DNA of 48,151 nucleotides from Nitrospinaceae bacterium (GTDB lineage Bacteria; Nitrospinota; Nitrospinia; Nitrospinales; VA-1). Position numbers and translations under genes: made by a program. Below the pieces are notes generated by a model, which saw nothing but the letters and a program-made list of their open reading frames with translations, ran no database searches and had not been told where the DNA came from. Where the stretch lies: positions 1-48,151 of the forward strand of contig JAJDBA010000173.1 of the NCBI GenBank assembly GCA_029261675.1, in the 5' to 3' direction. Numbering within the stretch: position 1 is the stretch's first letter; each line of letters begins with the position of its first letter. This document shows positions 21,681 through 32,625 of the stretch, piece by piece.

Positions 21681-22994
21681 GTGATGACAGGTAAAAAAGA
21701 ACGCGGTCTTTGGGAGCTTTATGCTAAGGATCCAGAAAAGGCGGATGCTGAAATTTGGGAAAGAAAACCCAATCCTTTATCCAGAAGAGGATTTTTAAAG
21801 AAAACGGGACTGGTCACCATGGCTCTGACCCTTGGCTCACAAATCCCTTTCTTTCGTAATATGCCGGGTGGATTTATTCCGCTGGCTCTAGCCGAAACGA
21901 ACGATAAAAAAATCATTGAAGGGAAAGAGGGATTGATTGTCTTAAACGATCGACCCGTCAATGCGGAACCCCCCGCCCATTTATTGGATGACGAATTCAC
22001 CCCCAAGGAAAAACATTTCGTTAGAAATAATGGCCTTCCTCCAGAAGGAAAAATTGATGCTAATCAATGGAAGTTTTCGATCGAGGGAGAAGTCCATAAA
22101 CCTTTTCAGTTAAGCTTGGAAGACCTGAAAAGTAAATTCAAGCATCATACCTATGCGCTACAGATAGAGTGCGGTGGAAATGGAAGGGCAGGGTACAATC
22201 CACCCGCAAAAGGCAACCAATGGAAATTCGGAGCGGTGGGTTGTGCTAAATACAAGGGCGTCCGACTGGGTGATGTATTGAAAGCCGCGGAGCTTAAGGA
22301 CTCTGCTGTATATACTGGCTATTACGGTGCTGATCTTCATCTTTCTGGAAACCCAGATAAAGCATCTATTTCACGCGGGACACCCATTACTAAAGCATTA
22401 GATGACCAGACTCTGATCGTTTGGGAGATGAACGGAGAGCCTCTTCCCGCTTTACACGGTTTCCCATTAAGAATAATAAGTCCTGGCTGGCCTGCCTCAG
22501 CTTCACCAAAATGGTTAAAGAGAATATGGGTTCGAGATCGAATCCACGATGGCATGAAAATGAATAAGTACAGAGTTCCAAAATATCCGGTGAAGCCAGG
22601 CGCATCTGTTCCCATGGAAGATATGGCTATCATCGAATCCATGCCGGTAAAATCTTTAATCACGAATCCGGAAACTGGGATTAAAATCAAACTTGGGAAC
22701 AAGCTTGATATCAGAGGTCATGCGTGGGCGGGTGACCTATCTGTTCAGGCACTTCATGTTTCTATAGACTTTGGGCAAACTTGGCAAAAGGCAGACCTTA
22801 AAGATCCATTGAATCCCTATGCCTGGCAGAATTGGAATGCAACGCTTCAATTTCCTAGTCAAGGTTATTATGAAGTTTGGGCAAGGGCTACCGATAGCGC
22901 GGGAGTTATGCAACCTATGGTTGTCCCAGGATGGAACCCTTCTGGTTATATAAATAACGCAATGCATCGAATCGCAGTTACCGTCAGTCAGTAG
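21681..22994 (+). CDS. Sulfite-oxidase-family molybdopterin oxidoreductase (SorA-like), Tat-exported
   Basis: Twin-arginine leader 'SRRGFLKKTGLVTMAL'. Mo-ligand Cys context 'LQIECGGNGR'; 'GFPLRIISPGW'. C-terminal Ig-like dimerisation region. ATG 21684 after AGAGG is probably the true start. Confidence 0.82.
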   Translation: MMTGKKERGLWELYAKDPEKADAEIWERKPNPLSRRGFLKKTGLVTMALTLGSQIPFFRNMPGGFIPLALAETNDKKIIEGKEGLIVLNDRPVNAEPPAHLLDDEFTPKEKHFVRNNGLPPEGKIDANQWKFSIEGEVHKPFQLSLEDLKSKFKHHTYALQIECGGNGRAGYNPPAKGNQWKFGAVGCAKYKGVRLGDVLKAAELKDSAVYTGYYGADLHLSGNPDKASISRGTPITKALDDQTLIVWEMNGEPLPALHGFPLRIISPGWPASASPKWLKRIWVRDRIHDGMKMNKYRVPKYPVKPGASVPMEDMAIIESMPVKSLITNPETGIKIKLGNKLDIRGHAWAGDLSVQALHVSIDFGQTWQKADLKDPLNPYAWQNWNATLQFPSQGYYEVWARATDSAGVMQPMVVPGWNPSGYINNAMHRIAVTVSQ

Positions 22995-22999
22995 GGGCC

Positions 23000-23383
23000 A
23001 TGGTAAAATTAGAAAGATTAGGGAAATATTGGCTCATCCAGTGCATGGTGGTAATTTTTTTGACATCCAACCTTGAAGCACAAGAGGAGATTGATTATCA
23101 GGGCCTGCCGCCGGGTGAGGGAATTGAGCTTGTGTTAGAGAACTGCACCGTTTGCCATTCGACAGACATCATTCTACAAAATCATATGAGTCGCGAAGCT
23201 TGGGATAAGACGATTACTTGGATGCAAAAAAAACAGGGATTGTGGGAACTGGGTAAAAAGGATCGAAAAACAATATTGGACTATCTTTCAAAAGCACAGG
23301 GAAGGATTATTAATAAAGCGAAACCGAATGGGACAAAAGGCAATCTCATGTACGAATTCGATTACAGGCCAAATCCTTTATAA
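23000..23383 (+). CDS. Monohaem c-type cytochrome (SorB-like electron acceptor)
   Basis: 127 aa. Signal-like N-terminus, single 'CTVCHS' (CXXCH) motif. Starts 5 nt after the SorA-like stop. Confidence 0.75.
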   Translation: MVKLERLGKYWLIQCMVVIFLTSNLEAQEEIDYQGLPPGEGIELVLENCTVCHSTDIILQNHMSREAWDKTITWMQKKQGLWELGKKDRKTILDYLSKAQGRIINKAKPNGTKGNLMYEFDYRPNPL

Positions 23384-23605: not shown

Positions 23606-24979
23606 GTGGTTACTCAAAATAAAATTCTACAAGGCAAAATTTTAATCGTTGATGACGAGCCGAATAACGTTGCCTTACTTGAGCAGACTTTGCAGGGGGT
23701 GGGGTATTCCTCTTTACGAAGCACTATGGATCCGCGCGAGGTCTGTGGTATTTTTGAGGAGTTCAAGCCTGATCTTATTTTGCTGGATATGAATATGCCA
23801 CATATGGACGGCTTCCAGGTCATGCAGAAACTAAAAAAAATTGACCCCAACTCTTCCGCTTCCATTTTAGTTTTGACTGCCCTCCAAGAAAGTGAAACCC
23901 GATGGCGAGCATTGCAAGCCGGAGCCCAGGAGTTTCTGACAAAACCTATTGATCTCGCGGAGGTGATTTGCCGTATTCAAATTATGTTGGAAATAAGGAA
24001 GCTCCGTTTAGAAATTGCCACTACAGAGAAAGAAGAATTTCCGGTTGTAGGGAAGTCGCCAGCTATAGTTCGCCTGAAAGAAGTTATTCATACGCTGGCT
24101 AATTGCAGTGCGGATGTTTTGCTTCTCGGTGAAACAGGTACCGGGAAAGACTTGGTCGCACGGTGTCTGCATGATTTAAGTGATAGGAAAGAAAAGAATT
24201 TTGTCGCTATAAATTGTGGCGCCATACCTGAAACTATTATTGAAAGTGAACTCTTTGGGCATGAAGCAGGTGCTTTTACCGGAGCCAATTCACGCCGTAT
24301 CGGCAAATTTGAATATGCTGACGGAGGCACCGTGTTTCTAGATGAAATAGAAAGCATGCCTATCGACTTACAGGTAAAGCTTCTGCGGGTTATTCAGGAG
24401 CGGACTGTGGAGAGAGTTGGTTCTAATCAGTCCATTCCCATTGATGTACGTATTATTGCTGCCACTAAAGTCGATTTAAAGGAAGCCAGCGACCAAGGAA
24501 AATTTCGTCAAGACCTCTACTACCGGCTGAATGTTGTGCAAATTATTCTTCCACCTCTTCGAGAACGTCAGGAAGACATCTCTCTTTTATTTCAGCATTT
24601 TGTTTTGCAAGCCTGTGCGAGACACAATCTACCGACTCCCATTTTGTCAAAGGGGTTAATGAGCCAGCTGAGCTCAAACAAATGGGAAGGTAATATTCGA
24701 GAGCTAAAAAATGAAGCAGAGAAGCATGTTCTGGGTATGGGGCTTGGACTTTCAGACCTGACTGCTGATTGCCAGGAAGCTCTTTCAAAAGATAAATCTA
24801 ATGAGTCCTCTTTTACACTTACCGAGCAGATGGATGTTTTTGAAAAGAAAATTTTGGAACAGGAACTACTTCGTCACGAGGGTAATATTAAAAACACCCA
24901 TGCCGCACTTGGTATTCCCAGACAAACTCTTGTTGATAAAATGAAAAAACATGGGTTTGATAAGAAGAATTTTCGCTAA
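23606..24979 (+). CDS. Sigma-54-dependent response regulator (NtrC family: REC, AAA+ sigma-54 interaction domain, Fis-type HTH)
   Basis: REC 'ILIVDDEPNN...LILLDMNMPHMDGFQV...VLTAL...FLTKP'. Walker A 'GETGTGKDLVA'; sigma-54 contact loop 'GAFTGA'; Walker B 'VFLDEIE'. C-terminal HTH 'GNIKNTHAALGIPRQTLVDKMKKHG'. Confidence 0.93.
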   Translation: MVTQNKILQGKILIVDDEPNNVALLEQTLQGVGYSSLRSTMDPREVCGIFEEFKPDLILLDMNMPHMDGFQVMQKLKKIDPNSSASILVLTALQESETRWRALQAGAQEFLTKPIDLAEVICRIQIMLEIRKLRLEIATTEKEEFPVVGKSPAIVRLKEVIHTLANCSADVLLLGETGTGKDLVARCLHDLSDRKEKNFVAINCGAIPETIIESELFGHEAGAFTGANSRRIGKFEYADGGTVFLDEIESMPIDLQVKLLRVIQERTVERVGSNQSIPIDVRIIAATKVDLKEASDQGKFRQDLYYRLNVVQIILPPLRERQEDISLLFQHFVLQACARHNLPTPILSKGLMSQLSSNKWEGNIRELKNEAEKHVLGMGLGLSDLTADCQEALSKDKSNESSFTLTEQMDVFEKKILEQELLRHEGNIKNTHAALGIPRQTLVDKMKKHGFDKKNFR

Positions 24980-25187: not shown

Positions 25188-25203
25188 TGGCACATCTATT
25201 GCT
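25188..25203 (+). promoter_or_regulatory. Sigma-54 (-24/-12) promoter 1
   Basis: TGGCAC-atcta-TTGCt matches the consensus TGGCAC-N5-TTGC(A/T). It lies 50 nt upstream of ATG 25253. Confidence 0.8.
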
Positions 25204-25252: not shown

Positions 25253-25438
25253 ATGATTTATGAAGTTCGAGTTTTAAATTCAAAAGGTGAGATTCAAAAG
25301 ACTTTAAGCACGGATCAATTAACCCAAAGATTTTGGGAAGGGTTTCGTCTGGAAGAAAGCCAAATGGGCTTTAGAGCCGCAAACAATGCAAGTTTTTTCA
25401 GAAATTCAAGAAAAATGAAATCACGAGTCGTATCTTGA
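25253..25438 (+). CDS. Small hypothetical protein (61 aa), first ORF behind sigma-54 promoter 1
   Basis: Strong Shine-Dalgarno AAAGGAGG 6 nt before the ATG. Basic C-terminus. No family recognised. Confidence 0.5.
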   Translation: MIYEVRVLNSKGEIQKTLSTDQLTQRFWEGFRLEESQMGFRAANNASFFRNSRKMKSRVVS

Positions 25439-25548: not shown

Positions 25549-27567
25549 ATGAACGCAATAAATACTCCATCACCAACCTCAAAATCCGGATTTTTCGGAT
25601 TATTTGGAAATGGTCATAATTCAGATACTTTAAAATCTGTCGGGGGGTCATTTTCAAGTCTGAACAAAGTCCAAGCAAATATTTTGGTCGCTGACGCTGA
25701 TTTCAAACTAATCTTTGCTAATGAAAATGCGGTAAAGACTCTTGGGATAATCAAGGAGCAAATTTATGCTGAGTTCGGTGTCTCAATAAATGACATGGTG
25801 GGTGGATCGATTCATCGCTTTCATAAAGACCCGGGTAGGATAGAAAGATTATTACGTAATCCATCAGCTTTGCCGCATACGGCAGAGTTTACTTTTGGTG
25901 ATGTGACTTTGGCAGCGACTATAAATTCGATTACCCATGCCAATGGAGTGGTTTCAGGGTATATCGTTAACTGGGAAGATGTCAGCCAAATCAATTTGAC
26001 AAAACTGGAAATGGAACGCATTCAATCCATGATGGAGAATGCTCCGGTCAATGTGATTTATTGTGATCCGGTAGACTTCAAGATCAACTATATCAACCCG
26101 GCTTCTGTTACAACTCTCAAGACGATCGAACAACACCTTCCCGTTGCTGTTGATAAACTAATGGGGCAATGCATTGATATTTTCCATAAGAACCCGGCAC
26201 ATCAGAGAAAGCTTCTTTCTAATCCTAGTAACCTTCCGCATAGAGCTCAAATTCAAGTAGGCCCCGAAATTCTCGATCTTCTGGTTACCGCTATTTATGA
26301 TAGCAACAAAACCTATCTTGGCCCCATGGTCACTTGGAATGTTATTACTGAAAAGTTGAGAATAGAAAATGATGTGGCGCGAGTCAATTCCATGATGGAA
26401 AACGCGCCAGTGAACGTTATTTTTGCGGACAAGGAAGAATTTAAAATCACCTATGTCAACCCGGCTTCCATTAAAACTCTCAAGACGATCGAAGAACATC
26501 TTCCCGTTGAGGTTGATAAATTAATGGGGCAATGTATTGACATCTTTCATAAGAACCCGGGACATCAGAGAAAGATATTAACCGATCCCAATAACTTACC
26601 GCACAGGGCAGAGATTCAAGTAGGCCCTGAAGTTCTTGATCTTTTGGTCAGTGCTATTTATGACAAAGACAAAAATTACTTGGGACCTATGGTGACATGG
26701 GAGTTGATAACTGAAAAGCTGGCAGCAGAAGAACGTGAGAGGAAGGCGAATGAGGCCGTAAAAACTATTCTGGAAAGTGTTTCAGAAAAAGCTCAAACAC
26801 TTGCCGGTGCCTCAGAGGAGCTGACTGCAACCAGTCAATTGATGGCGGGTAATGCAGAAGAAACATCCGCACAATCGAATGTCGTGTCTTCTGCATCAGA
26901 TCAGGTGAATCAGAATATCCAAACGGTTGCCGCTGGTTCTGAAGAGATGAGTGCCAGCATCAAGGAAATCGCCCAAAATGCCAATCAAGCCACTAAGGTG
27001 ACTGGTGATGCTGTGAAACTAGCCGAGACCACCAATCAGACGGTGACCAAGTTGGGCGCTAGCTCCGCTGAGATCGGTCAGGTAATCAAGGTTATTACTT
27101 CAATCGCAGAACAAACGAATCTTCTGGCGCTCAATGCAACTATTGAGGCGGCTCGAGCTGGTGAGGCGGGGAAGGGGTTTGCGGTGGTGGCGAATGAGGT
27201 TAAGGAACTCGCTAACCAAACGGCTAAAGCGACAGAAGATATCAGCAGTAAGATTCAGGCAATTCAAACGGATACTCAAAGTGCAGTAACCGCGATTGGA
27301 GAGATTGGCACGGTCATAGGCCAAATCAGCGATATCTCTAATACGATTGCCAGTGCTGTTGAAGAACAATCTGCGACTACCAGTGAGATCACCCGAAACG
27401 TTTCGGAAGCATCCAGAGGGTCTCAGGAGATTGCTGAAAATATCTCCGGGGTTGCTCAGGCAGCGCATAGCACAACTGAGGGAGCCAATGATACTCAAGT
27501 TGCTGCGAGCGAATTGTCCAAACTTGCAGCCGAGATGCAGAGCCTTGTTGATCAAGATAAACGTTAA
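25549..27567 (+). CDS. Soluble methyl-accepting chemotaxis protein with three tandem PAS units (Aer2-like, putatively haem-binding); no transmembrane or HAMP segment visible
   Basis: Signalling hairpin '[35 protein letters not shown]'. Three PAS units each carry 'FHK[DN]P' (His92, His213, His334) and a later 'V[NT]W'. No hydrophobic helix anywhere in the protein. Confidence 0.88.
26017..26742 (+). repeat. Tandem in-frame duplication (2 x 363 bp) encoding PAS units 2 and 3 of the MCP
   Basis: '[11 protein letters not shown]..' recurs exactly 363 nt (121 codons) later: TCC ATG ATG at 26026 and at 26389. The two units are roughly 80% identical in DNA by eye. An older, more diverged copy lies at about 25650-26016. 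Confidence 0.85.
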
Positions 27568-27657: not shown

Positions 27658-30270
27658 ATGGGTGACAGTGAAATGATTCAAGAGTTTGTGGCCGAATGCC
27701 GTGAGAATCTGGATCAATTTGATAAAGATTTGATCCGTCTTGAAAATGAGTCGAATTCCTCTGGTTTGATGGAAAGTATTTTTCGAACCATACATACAAT
27801 CAAGGGAAGTTGCGGATTGATTGGTTTTGTTAAACTCGAATCAATTACTCATGCTGGTGAAAATCTTCTTGGAAAAATCCAGCAAGATAAGGTGACTCCC
27901 TCTAGAGAAGTAATAGGTGTCTTGCAGAAACTTGCAGATTCAGTTCGCAGGATATGTACATGCATTTTAAACCAAGGAAATGAAGGGGATCAGGATTTTT
28001 CAGAATTGATTGTGAGCCTGGAACGTTTGCAGTCAGATGAGAACGAAAAAACCTCTTCAAATAATGGAAATGGTGCAAAGGCCGCATCTCTTTTTGAGAG
28101 AATCGGAGGTCAGGAGGCAATTGATGCGACCGTCAATGTTTTCTACACCAAAGTTCTCAATGATAGCCGAATCAATCATTTTTTTGAAAATACAGATTTG
28201 AATCATTTGTTTAATAAGCAAAAGGAATTCCTGACTCTCGCATTTGGGGGATCCAGTAACTATGATGGAAAAGGATTACGGGAAGTGCACAAGCATCTGG
28301 TGGAAAAGGGGCTCAACGAAAGCCATTTTGAGGCCGTCATCGAAAACCTTGGTGCGACTTTAAAGGAACTAAAAGTTCCAGATGAGTTGATCGAAGAAGC
28401 TGCCGGTGTAGCTCTTTCTGTAAAAAATGATGTTCTTAATCAAGCTCCCTCAGCGCCACCAAAAAAAGATGAGGTTCAAATAAATGAAGCAGTAGACATC
28501 TTGCCCGAAAATGGAAAACCAATTCCAGCTAATGAAAATGTTAAAAAGACCGCGACTACTGGAAAGAAAGAAGAACGTAAGCTGGAAGACTCGAGCATTC
28601 GTGTCGATGTGCAATTGTTGGATAAACTGATGAACCTGGTTGGAGAGTTGGTTTTAGCTAGAAATCAGATCATGCAGCTCAACGATACTCATCAAGACCC
28701 TACTTTCATGGAAACCTCTCAACATTTGAATTTAGTGACCTCTGATCTTCAGGAGGGAGTAATGAAAACCCGGATGCAGCCTATAGGCGGTATATGGGGT
28801 AAGTTTCCCAGAATTGTTCGCGATTTGTCGATGGAATGCGGCAAGAAAATTCGTCTTGAAACAGAAGGTAAAGAAACCGAGTTGGACAAAACTTTGATAG
28901 AGGCAATCAAAGATCCCTTGACGCATATCATTCGCAATTCAGTAGACCATGGAATAGAAAAACCTGATATTCGGATAGATCAAGGTAAACCTGAAGAAGG
29001 AACTTTAAATTTAAAAGCCTATCACGAGGGTGGGCAGGTCATTATTGAAATCACGGATGATGGTGGTGGAATCGATTCGTCAATTCTCAAGGAAAAGGCG
29101 TTGAGTAAAGGTCTAATCACAAATGAGCAGGCCTTGAAAATGAATGATCGAGAATCCGTTAATCTTATTTTCTTACCGGGACTTTCTACGGCCAAAAAAG
29201 TTACTAATGTATCGGGTCGTGGTGTCGGAATGGATGTTGTAAAAACCAATATAGAAAAAATTGGCGGAACTGTTGATATTAATACAACTAAGGGAGAAGG
29301 CACAACTCTGAAGGTCAAGATTCCTTTAACATTGGCAATCATTCCAGCCCTGATCGTTTCAACAGGCGCAAATCAGTATGCAATACCTCAGGTAAACCTG
29401 CTGGAGTTGGTTAGACTGGAAAAAGAACAATCTGAAAATAGCATCGAGTTGATTCAAGGAACCCCGGTATATCGTTTGCGAGGAAACCTTTTACCTATTG
29501 TTAGTTTGCACGATGAGCTTGGTGTTGCAAAAAATGATACAGATCAAACCGCAACTAATATTGTTGTTTTAAACGCGAATGGCAAGCAGTTTGGTCTGGT
29601 GGTTGAGGAAATTTGTGACTCAGAGGAAATCGTGGTGAAACCTCTTGGAAGTCAGTTGAAGGGAATCTCTGCCTTTTCGGGAGCAACGATCATGGGAGAC
29701 GGGAGGATAGCATTGATCCTCGACATAATGGGTCTTGCTCAAAAAGCACAAGTAATTCGTGAAAATCAGGAGACGAGTACGAAAGAAACGAGTGGCACAG
29801 ACCTTGAAAGCAGCCATGCTTCAAACAAAGAAACCTTGTTGATATTCAGAGTTGGAAAAGAAGGGCGAAGCTCTATTCCACTTTCTGCGGTGGCACGCTT
29901 AGAGGAATTTAAGAGTTCAGATATTGAGCGTTCAGGAAAGAATAAGGTCATTCAATATCGAGGCGAAATTATACCTCTTATTTGTCTTGAAGAGTTTTTC
30001 GATTCTTTCAAAGAGATAGAGCAAAAGGAAGCAATTCAGGCTGTTATTTTTACCCAGAAAAATAAAAGTGTGGCTCTTGTAGTCGATAAAATTCTTGATA
30101 TTGTCGAAGAAAACATTTTGGTAAAACGCACGTTCTCTCGGGCGGGAATTTTGGGAACAGTGGTTGTTCAAGATAAAGTTACGGACTTGATAGATATGGA
30201 AGGTGTTGTTCGAAAAATGGACCCCACATTTTTTGAAGATTGTGAAGAGGTTTTGAGTTTGAATCATTAG
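27658..30270 (+). CDS. cheA: CheA histidine kinase with a truncated-haemoglobin domain in place of P2 and two CheW-like domains (Hpt, trHb, dimerisation, HATPase_c, CheW-like x2)
   Basis: P1 'FRTIHTIKGS' (His46); globin 'LFERIGGQEAIDATVNVFYTKVL...' at aa 144-261; P3 'IRVDVQLLDKLMNLVGELVLARNQ'. P4 'DPLTHIIRNSVDHGIE', 'DDGGGID', 'GRGVGMDVVKTNIE'. P5 'NQYAIPQVNLLELVRL...'; second CheW-like 'ETLLIFRVGKEGRSSIPLSAVARLEEF...'. Confidence 0.92.
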   Translation: MGDSEMIQEFVAECRENLDQFDKDLIRLENESNSSGLMESIFRTIHTIKGSCGLIGFVKLESITHAGENLLGKIQQDKVTPSREVIGVLQKLADSVRRICTCILNQGNEGDQDFSELIVSLERLQSDENEKTSSNNGNGAKAASLFERIGGQEAIDATVNVFYTKVLNDSRINHFFENTDLNHLFNKQKEFLTLAFGGSSNYDGKGLREVHKHLVEKGLNESHFEAVIENLGATLKELKVPDELIEEAAGVALSVKNDVLNQAPSAPPKKDEVQINEAVDILPENGKPIPANENVKKTATTGKKEERKLEDSSIRVDVQLLDKLMNLVGELVLARNQIMQLNDTHQDPTFMETSQHLNLVTSDLQEGVMKTRMQPIGGIWGKFPRIVRDLSMECGKKIRLETEGKETELDKTLIEAIKDPLTHIIRNSVDHGIEKPDIRIDQGKPEEGTLNLKAYHEGGQVIIEITDDGGGIDSSILKEKALSKGLITNEQALKMNDRESVNLIFLPGLSTAKKVTNVSGRGVGMDVVKTNIEKIGGTVDINTTKGEGTTLKVKIPLTLAIIPALIVSTGANQYAIPQVNLLELVRLEKEQSENSIELIQGTPVYRLRGNLLPIVSLHDELGVAKNDTDQTATNIVVLNANGKQFGLVVEEICDSEEIVVKPLGSQLKGISAFSGATIMGDGRIALILDIMGLAQKAQVIRENQETSTKETSGTDLESSHASNKETLLIFRVGKEGRSSIPLSAVARLEEFKSSDIERSGKNKVIQYRGEIIPLICLEEFFDSFKEIEQKEAIQAVIFTQKNKSVALVVDKILDIVEENILVKRTFSRAGILGTVVVQDKVTDLIDMEGVVRKMDPTFFEDCEEVLSLNH
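28087..28440 (+). other. Truncated haemoglobin (group I/trHbN-like, 2-on-2 globin) domain embedded in CheA
   Basis: Aligns without gaps, from 'IGG' to the proximal His, with my recollection of Mycobacterium tuberculosis HbN. Tyr-B10 (TAC 28144-28146), Gln-E11 (CAA 28219-28221) and His-F8 (CAC 28288-28290, 'REVHKH') are conserved. Confidence 0.8.
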
Positions 30271-30305: not shown

Positions 30306-30734
30306 ATGAGTGATGAAAAACAGTTTTGCACATTTTATCTTGGGGATAGGTTCTTTGGTGTAGAGGTGGAGCGAGTGCAGGAAGTTTTTAGATACCAAGA
30401 AATGACACAAGTTCCACTGGCGCCTTCTGTCGTGCGAGGATTGATCAATCTCAGGGGACAGATCATTACAGCCATTGATTTGAGACGTAGGCTTGGCATG
30501 AAGGAGATTTCCGAGGACCAAAACCCCATGAATATTGTCGTCAGAACCGATGATGATGTGGTGAGTCTGCTGGTGGACCGAATCGGGGATGTTTTGGAAG
30601 TAGGTGACGAAGTTCTGGAGCCCCCGCCTGAAACACTAGATGAAATAGCGCGAAAATTGATTCCAGGAGTTTATAAGCTCAACGGCTCTCTGCTGTTAAC
30701 TCTAGATACAGAAAAAACATTGGATTTTTCCTAA
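30306..30734 (+). CDS. cheW: CheW coupling protein
   Basis: 142 aa. 'FCTFYLGDRFFGVEVERVQEV', 'VRGLINLRGQIITAIDLRRRLG', 'LVDRIGDVLEV'. Confidence 0.9.
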   Translation: MSDEKQFCTFYLGDRFFGVEVERVQEVFRYQEMTQVPLAPSVVRGLINLRGQIITAIDLRRRLGMKEISEDQNPMNIVVRTDDDVVSLLVDRIGDVLEVGDEVLEPPPETLDEIARKLIPGVYKLNGSLLLTLDTEKTLDFS

Positions 30735-30962: not shown

Positions 30963-31034
30963 AGAACCATCCAATTTTGGATCTTCAATATTGCAAGTGA
31001 TTGAAAAATAATGCTTATTTTTGTTTGTGAATTT

Positions 31035-31050
31035 TGGCAGGCATATTGCT
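31035..31050 (+). promoter_or_regulatory. Sigma-54 (-24/-12) promoter 2
   Basis: TGGCAG-gcata-TTGCt. It lies inside the TTG-initiated extension of the ORF-track entry 31021..32625 and 55 nt upstream of ATG 31105. Confidence 0.75.
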
Positions 31051-31104
31051 TTAGTAAAGTTAGTGCCGTTCATAAAAAATGTTTTCTTTGAAGGAGAAGT
31101 GGAA

Positions 31105-32625
31105 ATGAATGCAATATCGTATCAAAAAGAAACACAAACTGTGCTTCGTCTATTGATGGTTGAAGAATCGACGGAAGATGCTTTATTGCTGGCCTGTGCG
31201 CTTCGAGATGGGGGTTACCAGCCTCAATGCGAAAGAGTAGAAACAGAAGATGCGATGATTTTAGCCTTGAAAAAACAAGAGTGGGATTTGGTGATTTCGG
31301 ATTCTAGGACGACTCTATTTGATGGGTTGGAAGCTATATCAACCCTAAAAAGTCATGGAGCGAATATTCCCATCATTATCGTTTCAAGCTCTGTTGATAT
31401 GTTTTCTAAGGAGAAATTGATTAAAGCCGGTGCAAGTGAATTTGTTTTAAAAGATAAACTATCAAGTCTTATTCCTATCCTAGAAAAAATACTCCCCAAG
31501 ACGAAAGAAAACCCCAAGGCAGACCTAAAACCCAAGCAAATAGATTCAAAACCGAATGACCTAAGCGAAACTAGCGATGTAGAGCTTCTGAATGCGAAAA
31601 TTTTAATTGTGGACGATGAACCTAAAAATGTTGAAGTTATCAAACAGGTTATGGAGATGGCAGGGTATGAAAATATTCGTTTCACCTGTGACCCGAGAGA
31701 AGTTTGCGATATTTATAAAATTTTCTGGCCCGACCTGGTTTTGTTGGATTTGAACATGCCTCATATGAATGGATTTCAGGTTATGGAAGAACTTAAAAAA
31801 GTGGAGCAAAGAGACTATCTTCCGGTATTAGTTCTGACTGCTCAAACCGATAGAGAGTCTCGTTTGAAAGCCCTGCGGGCGGGGGCCAAGGATTTTTTAC
31901 TGAAACCTTTTGATCTTGTTGAGGTGATACATCGGATACAAAATATACTGGAAGTTCGACTGATCCAAAATAAGCTTAGACATCAGAATTTTAATCTTGA
32001 AGAAAAAGTTCAGGAGCGTACGAAGGAGTTATATAAAACTCAACTATCCGTAGTCCAACGGTTGGGGCGCGCAGCGGAGTATCGCGATAATGAGACCGGT
32101 AATCACGTTCTACGAATGAGTAAGGTTGCTGCTTTACTGGCAAAACATATGGGTTTTGACGAAAAACAATGCGACCTGATTCTGAATGCTGCACCCATGC
32201 ACGATGTAGGGAAAATTGGCATCCCAGACGGGATTCTACTGAAACCGGGAAAACATGATTTAGAGGAATGGGGCGTCATGAGAACCCATGCTGAAATTGG
32301 CTATCATATTCTCGCTGATGATCCATCGGAATTAATGCAGTTGGCCGCCAAGATTGCCTTGGAACACCATGAAAAGTGGGATGGGTCGGGGTATCCCAAA
32401 GGGTTAAAGGGAGAGGAAATTTCTATCGAGGCAAGGATTACTACGGTAAGCGATGTGTTTGATGCGTTGACCTCCGAAAGACCCTACAAAAGAGCATGGC
32501 CAGTTGAGGATGCTATCAAATATATTGAAGATCAAAAAGGAATCTCTTTCGATCCTCAAATTGTGGAAAAGTTCAAAAATGTTGTGCCAGATATTATTCG
32601 TATTAAAGATCAATTTGTCGATTAG
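31105..32625 (+). CDS. Dual-receiver HD-GYP response regulator (REC, REC, HD-GYP; RpfG-type putative c-di-GMP phosphodiesterase)
   Basis: Start moved to ATG 31105 (GGAG 9 nt upstream), because the upstream extension contains the sigma-54 promoter. REC1 'LLMVEES...LVISD...IIIVSSS'. REC2 'ILIVDDEPKN...LLDLNMPHMNGFQV...VLTAQ...FLLKP'. HD 'APMHDVGKIG'; 'HHEKWDGSGYP'. Confidence 0.9.
   Translation: MNAISYQKETQTVLRLLMVEESTEDALLLACALRDGGYQPQCERVETEDAMILALKKQEWDLVISDSRTTLFDGLEAISTLKSHGANIPIIIVSSSVDMFSKEKLIKAGASEFVLKDKLSSLIPILEKILPKTKENPKADLKPKQIDSKPNDLSETSDVELLNAKILIVDDEPKNVEVIKQVMEMAGYENIRFTCDPREVCDIYKIFWPDLVLLDLNMPHMNGFQVMEELKKVEQRDYLPVLVLTAQTDRESRLKALRAGAKDFLLKPFDLVEVIHRIQNILEVRLIQNKLRHQNFNLEEKVQERTKELYKTQLSVVQRLGRAAEYRDNETGNHVLRMSKVAALLAKHMGFDEKQCDLILNAAPMHDVGKIGIPDGILLKPGKHDLEEWGVMRTHAEIGYHILADDPSELMQLAAKIALEHHEKWDGSGYPKGLKGEEISIEARITTVSDVFDALTSERPYKRAWPVEDAIKYIEDQKGISFDPQIVEKFKNVVPDIIRIKDQFVD

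Follow-up and report, generated by a model that had tools for sequence, protein, structure and literature searches.

Whether a PAS-haem domain can drive the kinase-control hairpin of a chemoreceptor directly, with no HAMP domain in between, is the question raised by a gene on a 48,151-nt contig of a marine, Nitrospina-like Nitrospinaceae bacterium (JAJDBA010000173.1, assembly GCA_029261675.1; the whole contig is called the window below). The open reading frame (ORF) at 25549..27567 (+) encodes a 672-aa methyl-accepting chemotaxis protein (MCP), hereafter the receptor, which a sequence-only reading had described as soluble, with three Aer2-like PAS units and neither a transmembrane helix nor a recognisable HAMP domain. 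The receptor belongs to the MCP family (PF00015), carrying a signalling domain with the conserved hairpin tip (Pfam MCPsignal, 123.7 bits against a cut-off of 34.6; match to Tsr, E = 4.5e-24), and Pfam also returned PAS_8 above its cut-off and PAS_9 just below. The claim of solubility was borne out: no transmembrane segment was found in the receptor, whose maximum Kyte-Doolittle mean over 19 residues was 1.09, a value that ruled out membrane anchoring. An AlphaFold2 (AF2) model of the monomer (predicted local distance difference test score, pLDDT, 73.7; predicted template-modelling score, pTM, 0.36) contained three canonical PAS folds, each a five-stranded antiparallel sheet flanked by helices, which were joined by helices 146-163 and 268-284 and followed by hairpin helices at 471-536, 540-606 and then 612-668.

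PAS units and the HAMP-less junction

The three PAS units lie end to end, each exactly 121 codons long, and the significant structure matches of each single unit were to Aer2 PAS-haem structures only. With 3VOL and 4HI4 (Pseudomonas aeruginosa PaAer2) and 6CEQ (PAS2 of Vibrio cholerae VcAer2) as reference structures, phmmer gave E-values of 1e-13 to 1e-15 for units 2 and 3 (unit 2 alone: 3VOL, E = 2.7e-15, and 6CEQ, E = 5.7e-15; unit 3 alone: 6CEQ, E = 9.5e-15), while unit 1 alone matched the PaAer2 PAS domain (4HI4) at E = 3e-7 and 25-34 bits. In a five-way alignment with Aer2 PAS domains, the F, H, K and P of the F-H-K-x-P motif were invariant; H92, H213 and H334 fell in register with the haem ligand H234 of PaAer2, and W142, W263 and W384 with its W283. 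The correspondence proposed from the letters alone, in which each unit carries an F-H-K-[DN]-P histidine and a later tryptophan, was thus intact, with its positions confirmed. All six residues were also invariant across 41 aligned relatives (51-93% identity). In Aer2 PAS domains, the Eη-His is the defining haem ligand and the Iβ-Trp is universally conserved (PMC10107281). Among single PAS domains in Foldseek, the highest target-normalised TM-scores (TMt) were obtained for 6CEQ (TMt 0.84, rmsd 1.4 Å, 39% identity) and 4HI4 (TMt 0.81). The top NCBIfam match was the Vibrio Aer2 equivalog NF041847, its best-scoring part confined to the PAS region (aa 35-394); the score of 328 bits against an equivalog cut-off of 1200 leaves the receptor outside that family. 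Judged by homology and residue register, all three units are Aer2-type PAS domains.

The junction downstream of PAS3 sets the receptor apart. Stuffle et al. 2022 (PMC10107281) defined a conserved "Aer2 core" with three parts: a PAS-haem domain, a di-HAMP to which it is directly joined, and a module for kinase control. In agreement with the first reading, Pfam returned no HAMP match in the receptor even at E <= 1, and the AF2 model and the linker length likewise showed no di-HAMP: the last PAS3 strand (377-386) led into a directly continuous helix (388-465), and only ~20 residues separate the last residue of the Iβ strand (386) from the 19-heptad bundle, which begins at aa 406. The di-HAMP of Vibrio vulnificus VvAer2 takes up ~96 residues (residues 410-505) (PMC10107281). 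Among relatives, the distance from the last Iβ-Trp to the tip Glu was 141, 148, 155 or 162 residues in 13, 3, 84 and 7 proteins, respectively, and such heptad-quantised distances are as predicted by a continuous coiled-coil connector. A second class of relatives had a distance of 207 (+52), and one of its members, P0013, gave a weak HAMP match of 16.7 bits. According to a July 2026 review, only four Aer2 receptors have been characterised, all with HAMP (PMC13401364), and the HAMP-less junction is a real departure from every one of them. No HAMP-less Aer2-type receptor, and no report on Nitrospina chemoreceptors, was found in the literature searched, which did not include Garcia et al. 2017 and Greer-Phillips et al. 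2018.

The number of units is less unusual than had been thought. The sequence-only reading had held three PAS units to be new; tri-PAS-haem VvAer2 and Leptospira interrogans LiAer2 are already published (PMC10107281). VvAer2 resembles the receptor in being a soluble MCP with three N-terminal PAS domains, each with Eη-His and Iβ-Trp, and with a duplicate pair among them, and the NCBIfam Vibrio Aer2 model is co-linear with receptor aa 35-394. In contrast, VvAer2 has a di-HAMP after PAS3, a 36H module and an EWEEF tail, whereas the receptor lacks both HAMP and pentapeptide and has arms of 19 heptads. In VvAer2 the duplicated units are PAS1 and PAS2 (PMC10107281); here they are PAS2 and PAS3, which are 74% identical to each other and at most 39% identical to Vibrio or Pseudomonas PAS domains. 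Given the different duplicate pair and the higher mutual identity, the three-unit state probably arose independently of VvAer2. LiAer2, as it is cited in PMC10107281, also has three PAS-haem domains and differs in being membrane-embedded, with hexacoordinate haem and a di-HAMP. PaAer2/McpB (3VOL, 4HI4) and VcAer2 (6CEQ) share the PAS-haem fold and signature (32-39% identity, TMt 0.81-0.84); VcAer2 differs in having two PAS domains and a di-HAMP, and both are part of 36H/F7 systems that include CheR, CheB and CheY, whose genes are not in the cluster at 17221-38629. Since the di-HAMP and the cluster composition are lacking, and the heptad class is probably not 36H, we filed the receptor as Aer2-like in its sensor and did not count it among the Aer2 orthologues. 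Its kind of sensor is known, and what sets it apart is an architecture that is widespread though uncharacterised. Azospirillum brasilense AerC is not known to have a HAMP between its PAS domains and MCP module either and, if indeed HAMP-less, would be the nearest architectural analogue for PAS-to-hairpin coupling. AerC is likewise a cytoplasmic receptor in which tandem PAS domains at the N-terminus precede an MCP module (PMC13401364), and differs in binding FAD through two Aer-type PAS units, where the receptor has three of the Aer2 type.

Proposed gas sensing and its alternatives

By analogy with PaAer2, VcAer2 and VvAer2, we consider it likely that the receptor is a cytoplasmic dimeric chemoreceptor with three b-type haems per chain, one in each PAS unit, that senses a diatomic gas, most probably O2. 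What we infer here (haem binding, ligand, sign of the response, kinase partner and output) would take the following form. The haems would be held by the Eη-His residues H92, H213 and H334, and bound O2 would be stabilised by the Iβ-Trp residues W142, W263 and W384. PAS3 would be the unit wired to the output, its last β-strand leading through a single helix into the N-terminal arm of the kinase-control hairpin. Because the PAS3 strand is continuous with the hairpin helix, ligand-induced movement at the Iβ/x-x-Thr junction would pass in-line through the coiled coil and not by a di-HAMP relay. PAS2, an old duplicate of PAS3, and the divergent PAS1 would then probably have a modulating role, as is the case in VvAer2. 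Through CheW, the receptor would act on the neighbouring CheA with its globin domain, and, as there is no CheY in the cluster, phosphate would probably be passed to the REC-REC-HD-GYP protein, a candidate for cyclic di-GMP (c-di-GMP) turnover, and possibly to other receivers.

Several observations weigh against this proposal. In Aer2, PAS is coupled to the domain that follows it by the Asp of the DxT motif. Unit 1 retains this Asp (D-V-S), which is Val in unit 2 (V-I-T) and Leu in unit 3 (L-I-T). The Hβ-Leu (L264 in PaAer2) is retained by units 2 and 3, with Ala at this position in unit 1. The details of coupling therefore differ from those of Aer2. The AF2 model is a monomer of moderate confidence, with pLDDT <50 in the PAS2-PAS3 linker. 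As to the kinase, some abundant orthologues (loci L081-L083) have no adjacent CheA or CheW, and the genome encodes two more CheA proteins and ~10 MCPs with near-equal C-terminal arms (most with 139 residues from the tip motif), so the partner kinase is not certain. As to the ligand, Aer2 PAS domains bind CO and NO as well (PMC10107281), so O2 is a probable rather than a certain ligand, and PAS1 of VvAer2 oxidises easily and may sense something else (PMC10107281).

The last two points lead to an alternative that we regard as unlikely, though well short of negligible, namely that the haems are present but respond in the cell to NO, CO or their own redox state and not to O2, with units possibly differing in ligand. 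NO and redox state would be relevant to a nitrite oxidiser at oxic-anoxic interfaces, and the cluster has other candidates for gas or redox sensing in an MHYT kinase and the globin of CheA. The Trp is not needed for CO binding by Aer2 PAS domains, and for the readily oxidised PAS1 of VvAer2 the authors proposed a redox or radical role (PMC10107281); the distal pocket of unit 1 differs here through its Ala at the Hβ-Leu position. However, the Trp that stabilises O2 shows no variation in any of the three units, and all four characterised Aer2 receptors signal to O2 (PMC10107281, PMC13401364). That at least one unit no longer binds haem, serving as a dimerisation or spacer module or binding another small ligand, so that the receptor is not a three-haem sensor, seems very improbable: the weak Aer2 score and pocket substitutions of unit 1, the absence of the His motif from some units of the wider family under a simple pattern and the largely dispensable PAS1 of VvAer2 (PMC10107281) would fit it, but His and Trp are invariant in every unit of the 41 aligned relatives, F-H-K-x-P is intact in all three units, and 9/9 tested Aer2-type PAS domains with this signature bound haem and O2 (PMC10107281).

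Age of the duplication, heptad class and wider family

Units 2 and 3 stem from a duplication, and its age was read from the DNA and from a tree of units. A direct repeat of 300 nt (26026-26325 and 26389-26688), offset by exactly 363 nt, has 78% identity between its copies, and 37 nt surrounding the F-H-K-[DN]-P codons recur as three copies at the same spacing; Tandem Repeats Finder reported no repeat at its thresholds, the repeat being too diverged for that tool. The in-frame 363-bp duplication of 121 codons noted earlier is thus real, and the DNA identity of roughly 80% attributed to it comes close to the value over 300 nt and overstates that over the full 363 nt, where His-anchored units 2 and 3 share 74.9% of the DNA and 73.6% of the protein sequence. 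Unit 1 is much more distant (~21% identity ungapped, ~30% by BLAST). Identity between units 2 and 3 at codon positions 1, 2 and 3 was 78.5, 86.8 and 59.5%, respectively, a sequence pattern that marks them as old duplicates under purifying selection.

In a tree of 232 units from 80 relatives <700 aa, unit 1 copies formed a separate clade (support 1.0), and all 62 unit-3 copies of three-unit main-clade proteins fell in a single clade together with the second units of seven "2-unit" proteins; unit-2 copies formed a grade adjacent to that clade. Since units cluster by position across orthologues, the duplication predates the divergence of the orthologue set, with no concerted evolution. A recent duplication or copy-number alleles were ruled out by the third-codon identity and this positional orthology. 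The earlier suggestion of dating the duplication by 1-, 2- and 3-unit alleles in relatives could therefore not be carried through: positional orthologues were found throughout, and the 518/539-aa "2-unit" proteins each carry one unit of the unit-2 type and one of the unit-3 type. In the single such case checked, locus L084 (7683-9608; deposited as a 539-aa protein), the called start is immediately preceded, in frame, by unit 1 and the N-terminus, and the tblastn match is contiguous over aa 28-669 (81%), which rules out a 2-unit allele there in favour of a truncated gene call; the remaining 518/539-aa entries are probably the same. Among species-representative genomes, full-length three-unit orthologues were found not only within the genus (84%) but also in further genera of the same family (63-66%) and in a second family of the order (64%); many small genomes of the genus encode no MCP of any kind.

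The disordered N-terminus (pLDDT <50) also carries a conserved element. The SG-x3-LF motif is present in the consensus of the 41 relatives and, in the form S-G-F-[FL]-G-L-F-G, is kept in orthologues; this peptide might serve in localisation or membrane association.

The hairpin is longer than the sequence-only reading had it. The C-terminal arm after the tip Glu539 counts 133 residues, exactly 19.0 heptads, where about 128 residues and 18 heptads had been estimated. The phmmer alignment to Tsr, a 36H receptor, required one 7-residue gap per arm, and the module aligned gap-free over ~280 aa to Azospirillum and Rhodospirillales MCPs, in which 38H receptors predominate, paired with F5 systems (PMC6759762). 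A 34H class, suggested by the two gaps, was dropped, as both arms run conserved and helical out to 19 heptads. Arm length, Tsr gaps and the Rhodospirillales alignment point to 38H and fit it better than the 36H class considered before. The receptor has three methylation-like motifs (aa 420, 462 and 602) and no C-terminal pentapeptide. A scan of contigs with hairpin-tip peptides returned mostly unrelated MCPs with the same type of hairpin; it informs the choice of heptad class and is uninformative on the distribution of the PAS units.

The HAMP-less design extends well beyond this gene. A word-indexed search gave >6000 matches, the best from metagenome-assembled genomes of Nitrospina, Nitrospinaceae and SAR324, with 2 to 7 units per protein in a strict 120/121-residue period; some units had no His motif under a simple pattern. 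An exhaustive phmmer search with aa 276-470 (PAS3, linker and N-terminal arm) against 1.84 billion representatives, clustered at 50% identity, yielded 817 clusters at E <= 1e-30. Among the best 150 of these, 109 had both the MCP tip and a unit; 60 of the 109 were HAMP-less by distance (44 in the 141/148/155/162 series) and 27 lay at 200/207. HAMP-less Aer2-like PAS-MCPs were found in other phyla too, including the sequenced Planctomycetaceae bacterium SH248. Arrays of up to 7 tandem units (for example in P0004, P0070 and P0075) exceed the maximum of three in any characterised Aer2, and some relatives have a truncated or 3/3 globin at either end: a truncated globin is N-terminal in P0003 and C-terminal, after the hairpin, in P0067, a 74%-identical orthologue. 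Tentatively, the HAMP-less arrays of 1 to 7 units, with their 120/121-residue period, heptad-step coiled coil and 38H-type hairpin, could be a distinct lineage wider than di-HAMP Aer2; in Nitrospinales, the receptor and its adjacent globin-CheA would then make up a two-tier haem sensor, detecting gas at the level of receptor and kinase alike, with c-di-GMP output via REC-REC-HD-GYP under σ54 control rather than, or besides, output to the flagellar motor.

Gene neighbourhood and significance

The features of the receptor and its surroundings are collected in the table.

Table. Features of the receptor gene and its neighbourhood (window positions; REC, receiver domain; HTH, helix-turn-helix domain).
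Feature	Position	Strand	Description
NtrC-type σ54 activator (REC-AAA-HTH)	23606..24979	+	ORF; upstream neighbour kept in loci L081-L084
σ54 -24/-12 promoter element	25188..25202	+	TGGCAC-N5-TTGC; sole zero-mismatch match in the 48-kb window
Receptor gene	25549..27567	+	Soluble MCP: disordered N-terminus, 3 PAS units, linker helix, kinase-control hairpin; ORF, Pfam and AF2
N-terminal 33 residues	25549..25647	+	Residues 1-33; predicted disordered (AF2 pLDDT <50); conserved SG-x3-LF motif
PAS unit 1	25648..26010	+	aa 34-154; His92 25822-25824, Trp142 25972-25974; divergent unit
PAS unit 2	26011..26373	+	aa 155-275; His213 26185-26187, Trp263 26335-26337
PAS unit 3	26374..26736	+	aa 276-396; His334 26548-26550, Trp384 26698-26700; joined to output module
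Linker helix	26710..26763	+	aa 388-405; between PAS3 Iβ strand and four-helix bundle; no HAMP
Kinase-control module	26764..27564	+	aa 406-672; hairpin tip Glu539 (27163-27165)
CheA with truncated-haemoglobin domain	27658..30270	+	Pfam: Hpt 5-97, Bac_globin 144-258, H-kinase_dim, HATPase_c, CheW
CheW	30306..30734	+	Pfam CheW, E = 2.3e-33
REC-REC-HD-GYP protein	31021..32625	+	Pfam Response_reg twice and HD_5; candidate output

The σ54 element is preceded by the NtrC-type activator gene and followed by a 61-codon ORF and then the receptor gene, and a one-mismatch σ54-like element was found at 31035-31049, near the start of the REC-REC-HD-GYP gene. The 61-codon ORF (25253-25438) has a strong AAGGAGG ribosome-binding site. 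In CheA, the Bac_globin domain (about 28087-28431) is located between Hpt and the dimerisation domain, and a second CheW-like stretch is present at the C-terminus. Contig C326 encodes a paralogue of this CheA with 73% identity in the core and no BLAST match to the globin segment; it matched the Hpt region at two places and so probably has two Hpt domains. The MCP-CheA(globin)-CheW order is kept in L084. Several hybrid kinases also lie downstream of the receptor gene, the MHYT kinase being part of the cluster. Pfam found no CheY, CheR or CheB in the cluster examined (17221-38629 of the window), which thus does not have the three genes that mark an F7-type che cluster; elsewhere in the genome, other contigs carry two more CheA genes as well as several genes for CheB, CheR and flagellin. 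The region at 21681-23383, immediately ahead of the signalling genes, codes for a sulfite-oxidase-type molybdopterin oxidoreductase and a small product with a weak haem-binding-domain match. A Haem_oxygenas_2 gene (PF14518) is a conserved neighbour on the opposite strand, downstream of the receptor locus, in L081-L084, which are contigs of other Nitrospinaceae, and is absent at this position in the window.

All 13 Aer2-like PAS units of the genome reside in seven of its ~10 MCPs (contigs C247, C153, C18, C127 and C117 besides the window), with none in a kinase or cyclase. Both linker classes occur: the C153 and C247 paralogues have a PAS-to-tip spacing 52 residues longer, which may correspond to a single HAMP.

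For the Aer2 family, the receptor and its relatives provide a counter-example to the proposed Aer2 rule, as they keep the haem signature and dispense with HAMP. This HAMP-less design is common in uncultured bacteria, and the family offers a natural test of direct PAS drive on a chemoreceptor hairpin, with the 141/148/155/162 linkers as a ready length series. Living along O2 gradients, Nitrospinales are the chief nitrite oxidisers of the ocean. The concentration of Aer2-like units in the MCPs of this genome suggests that gas sensing dominates its chemosensory input.

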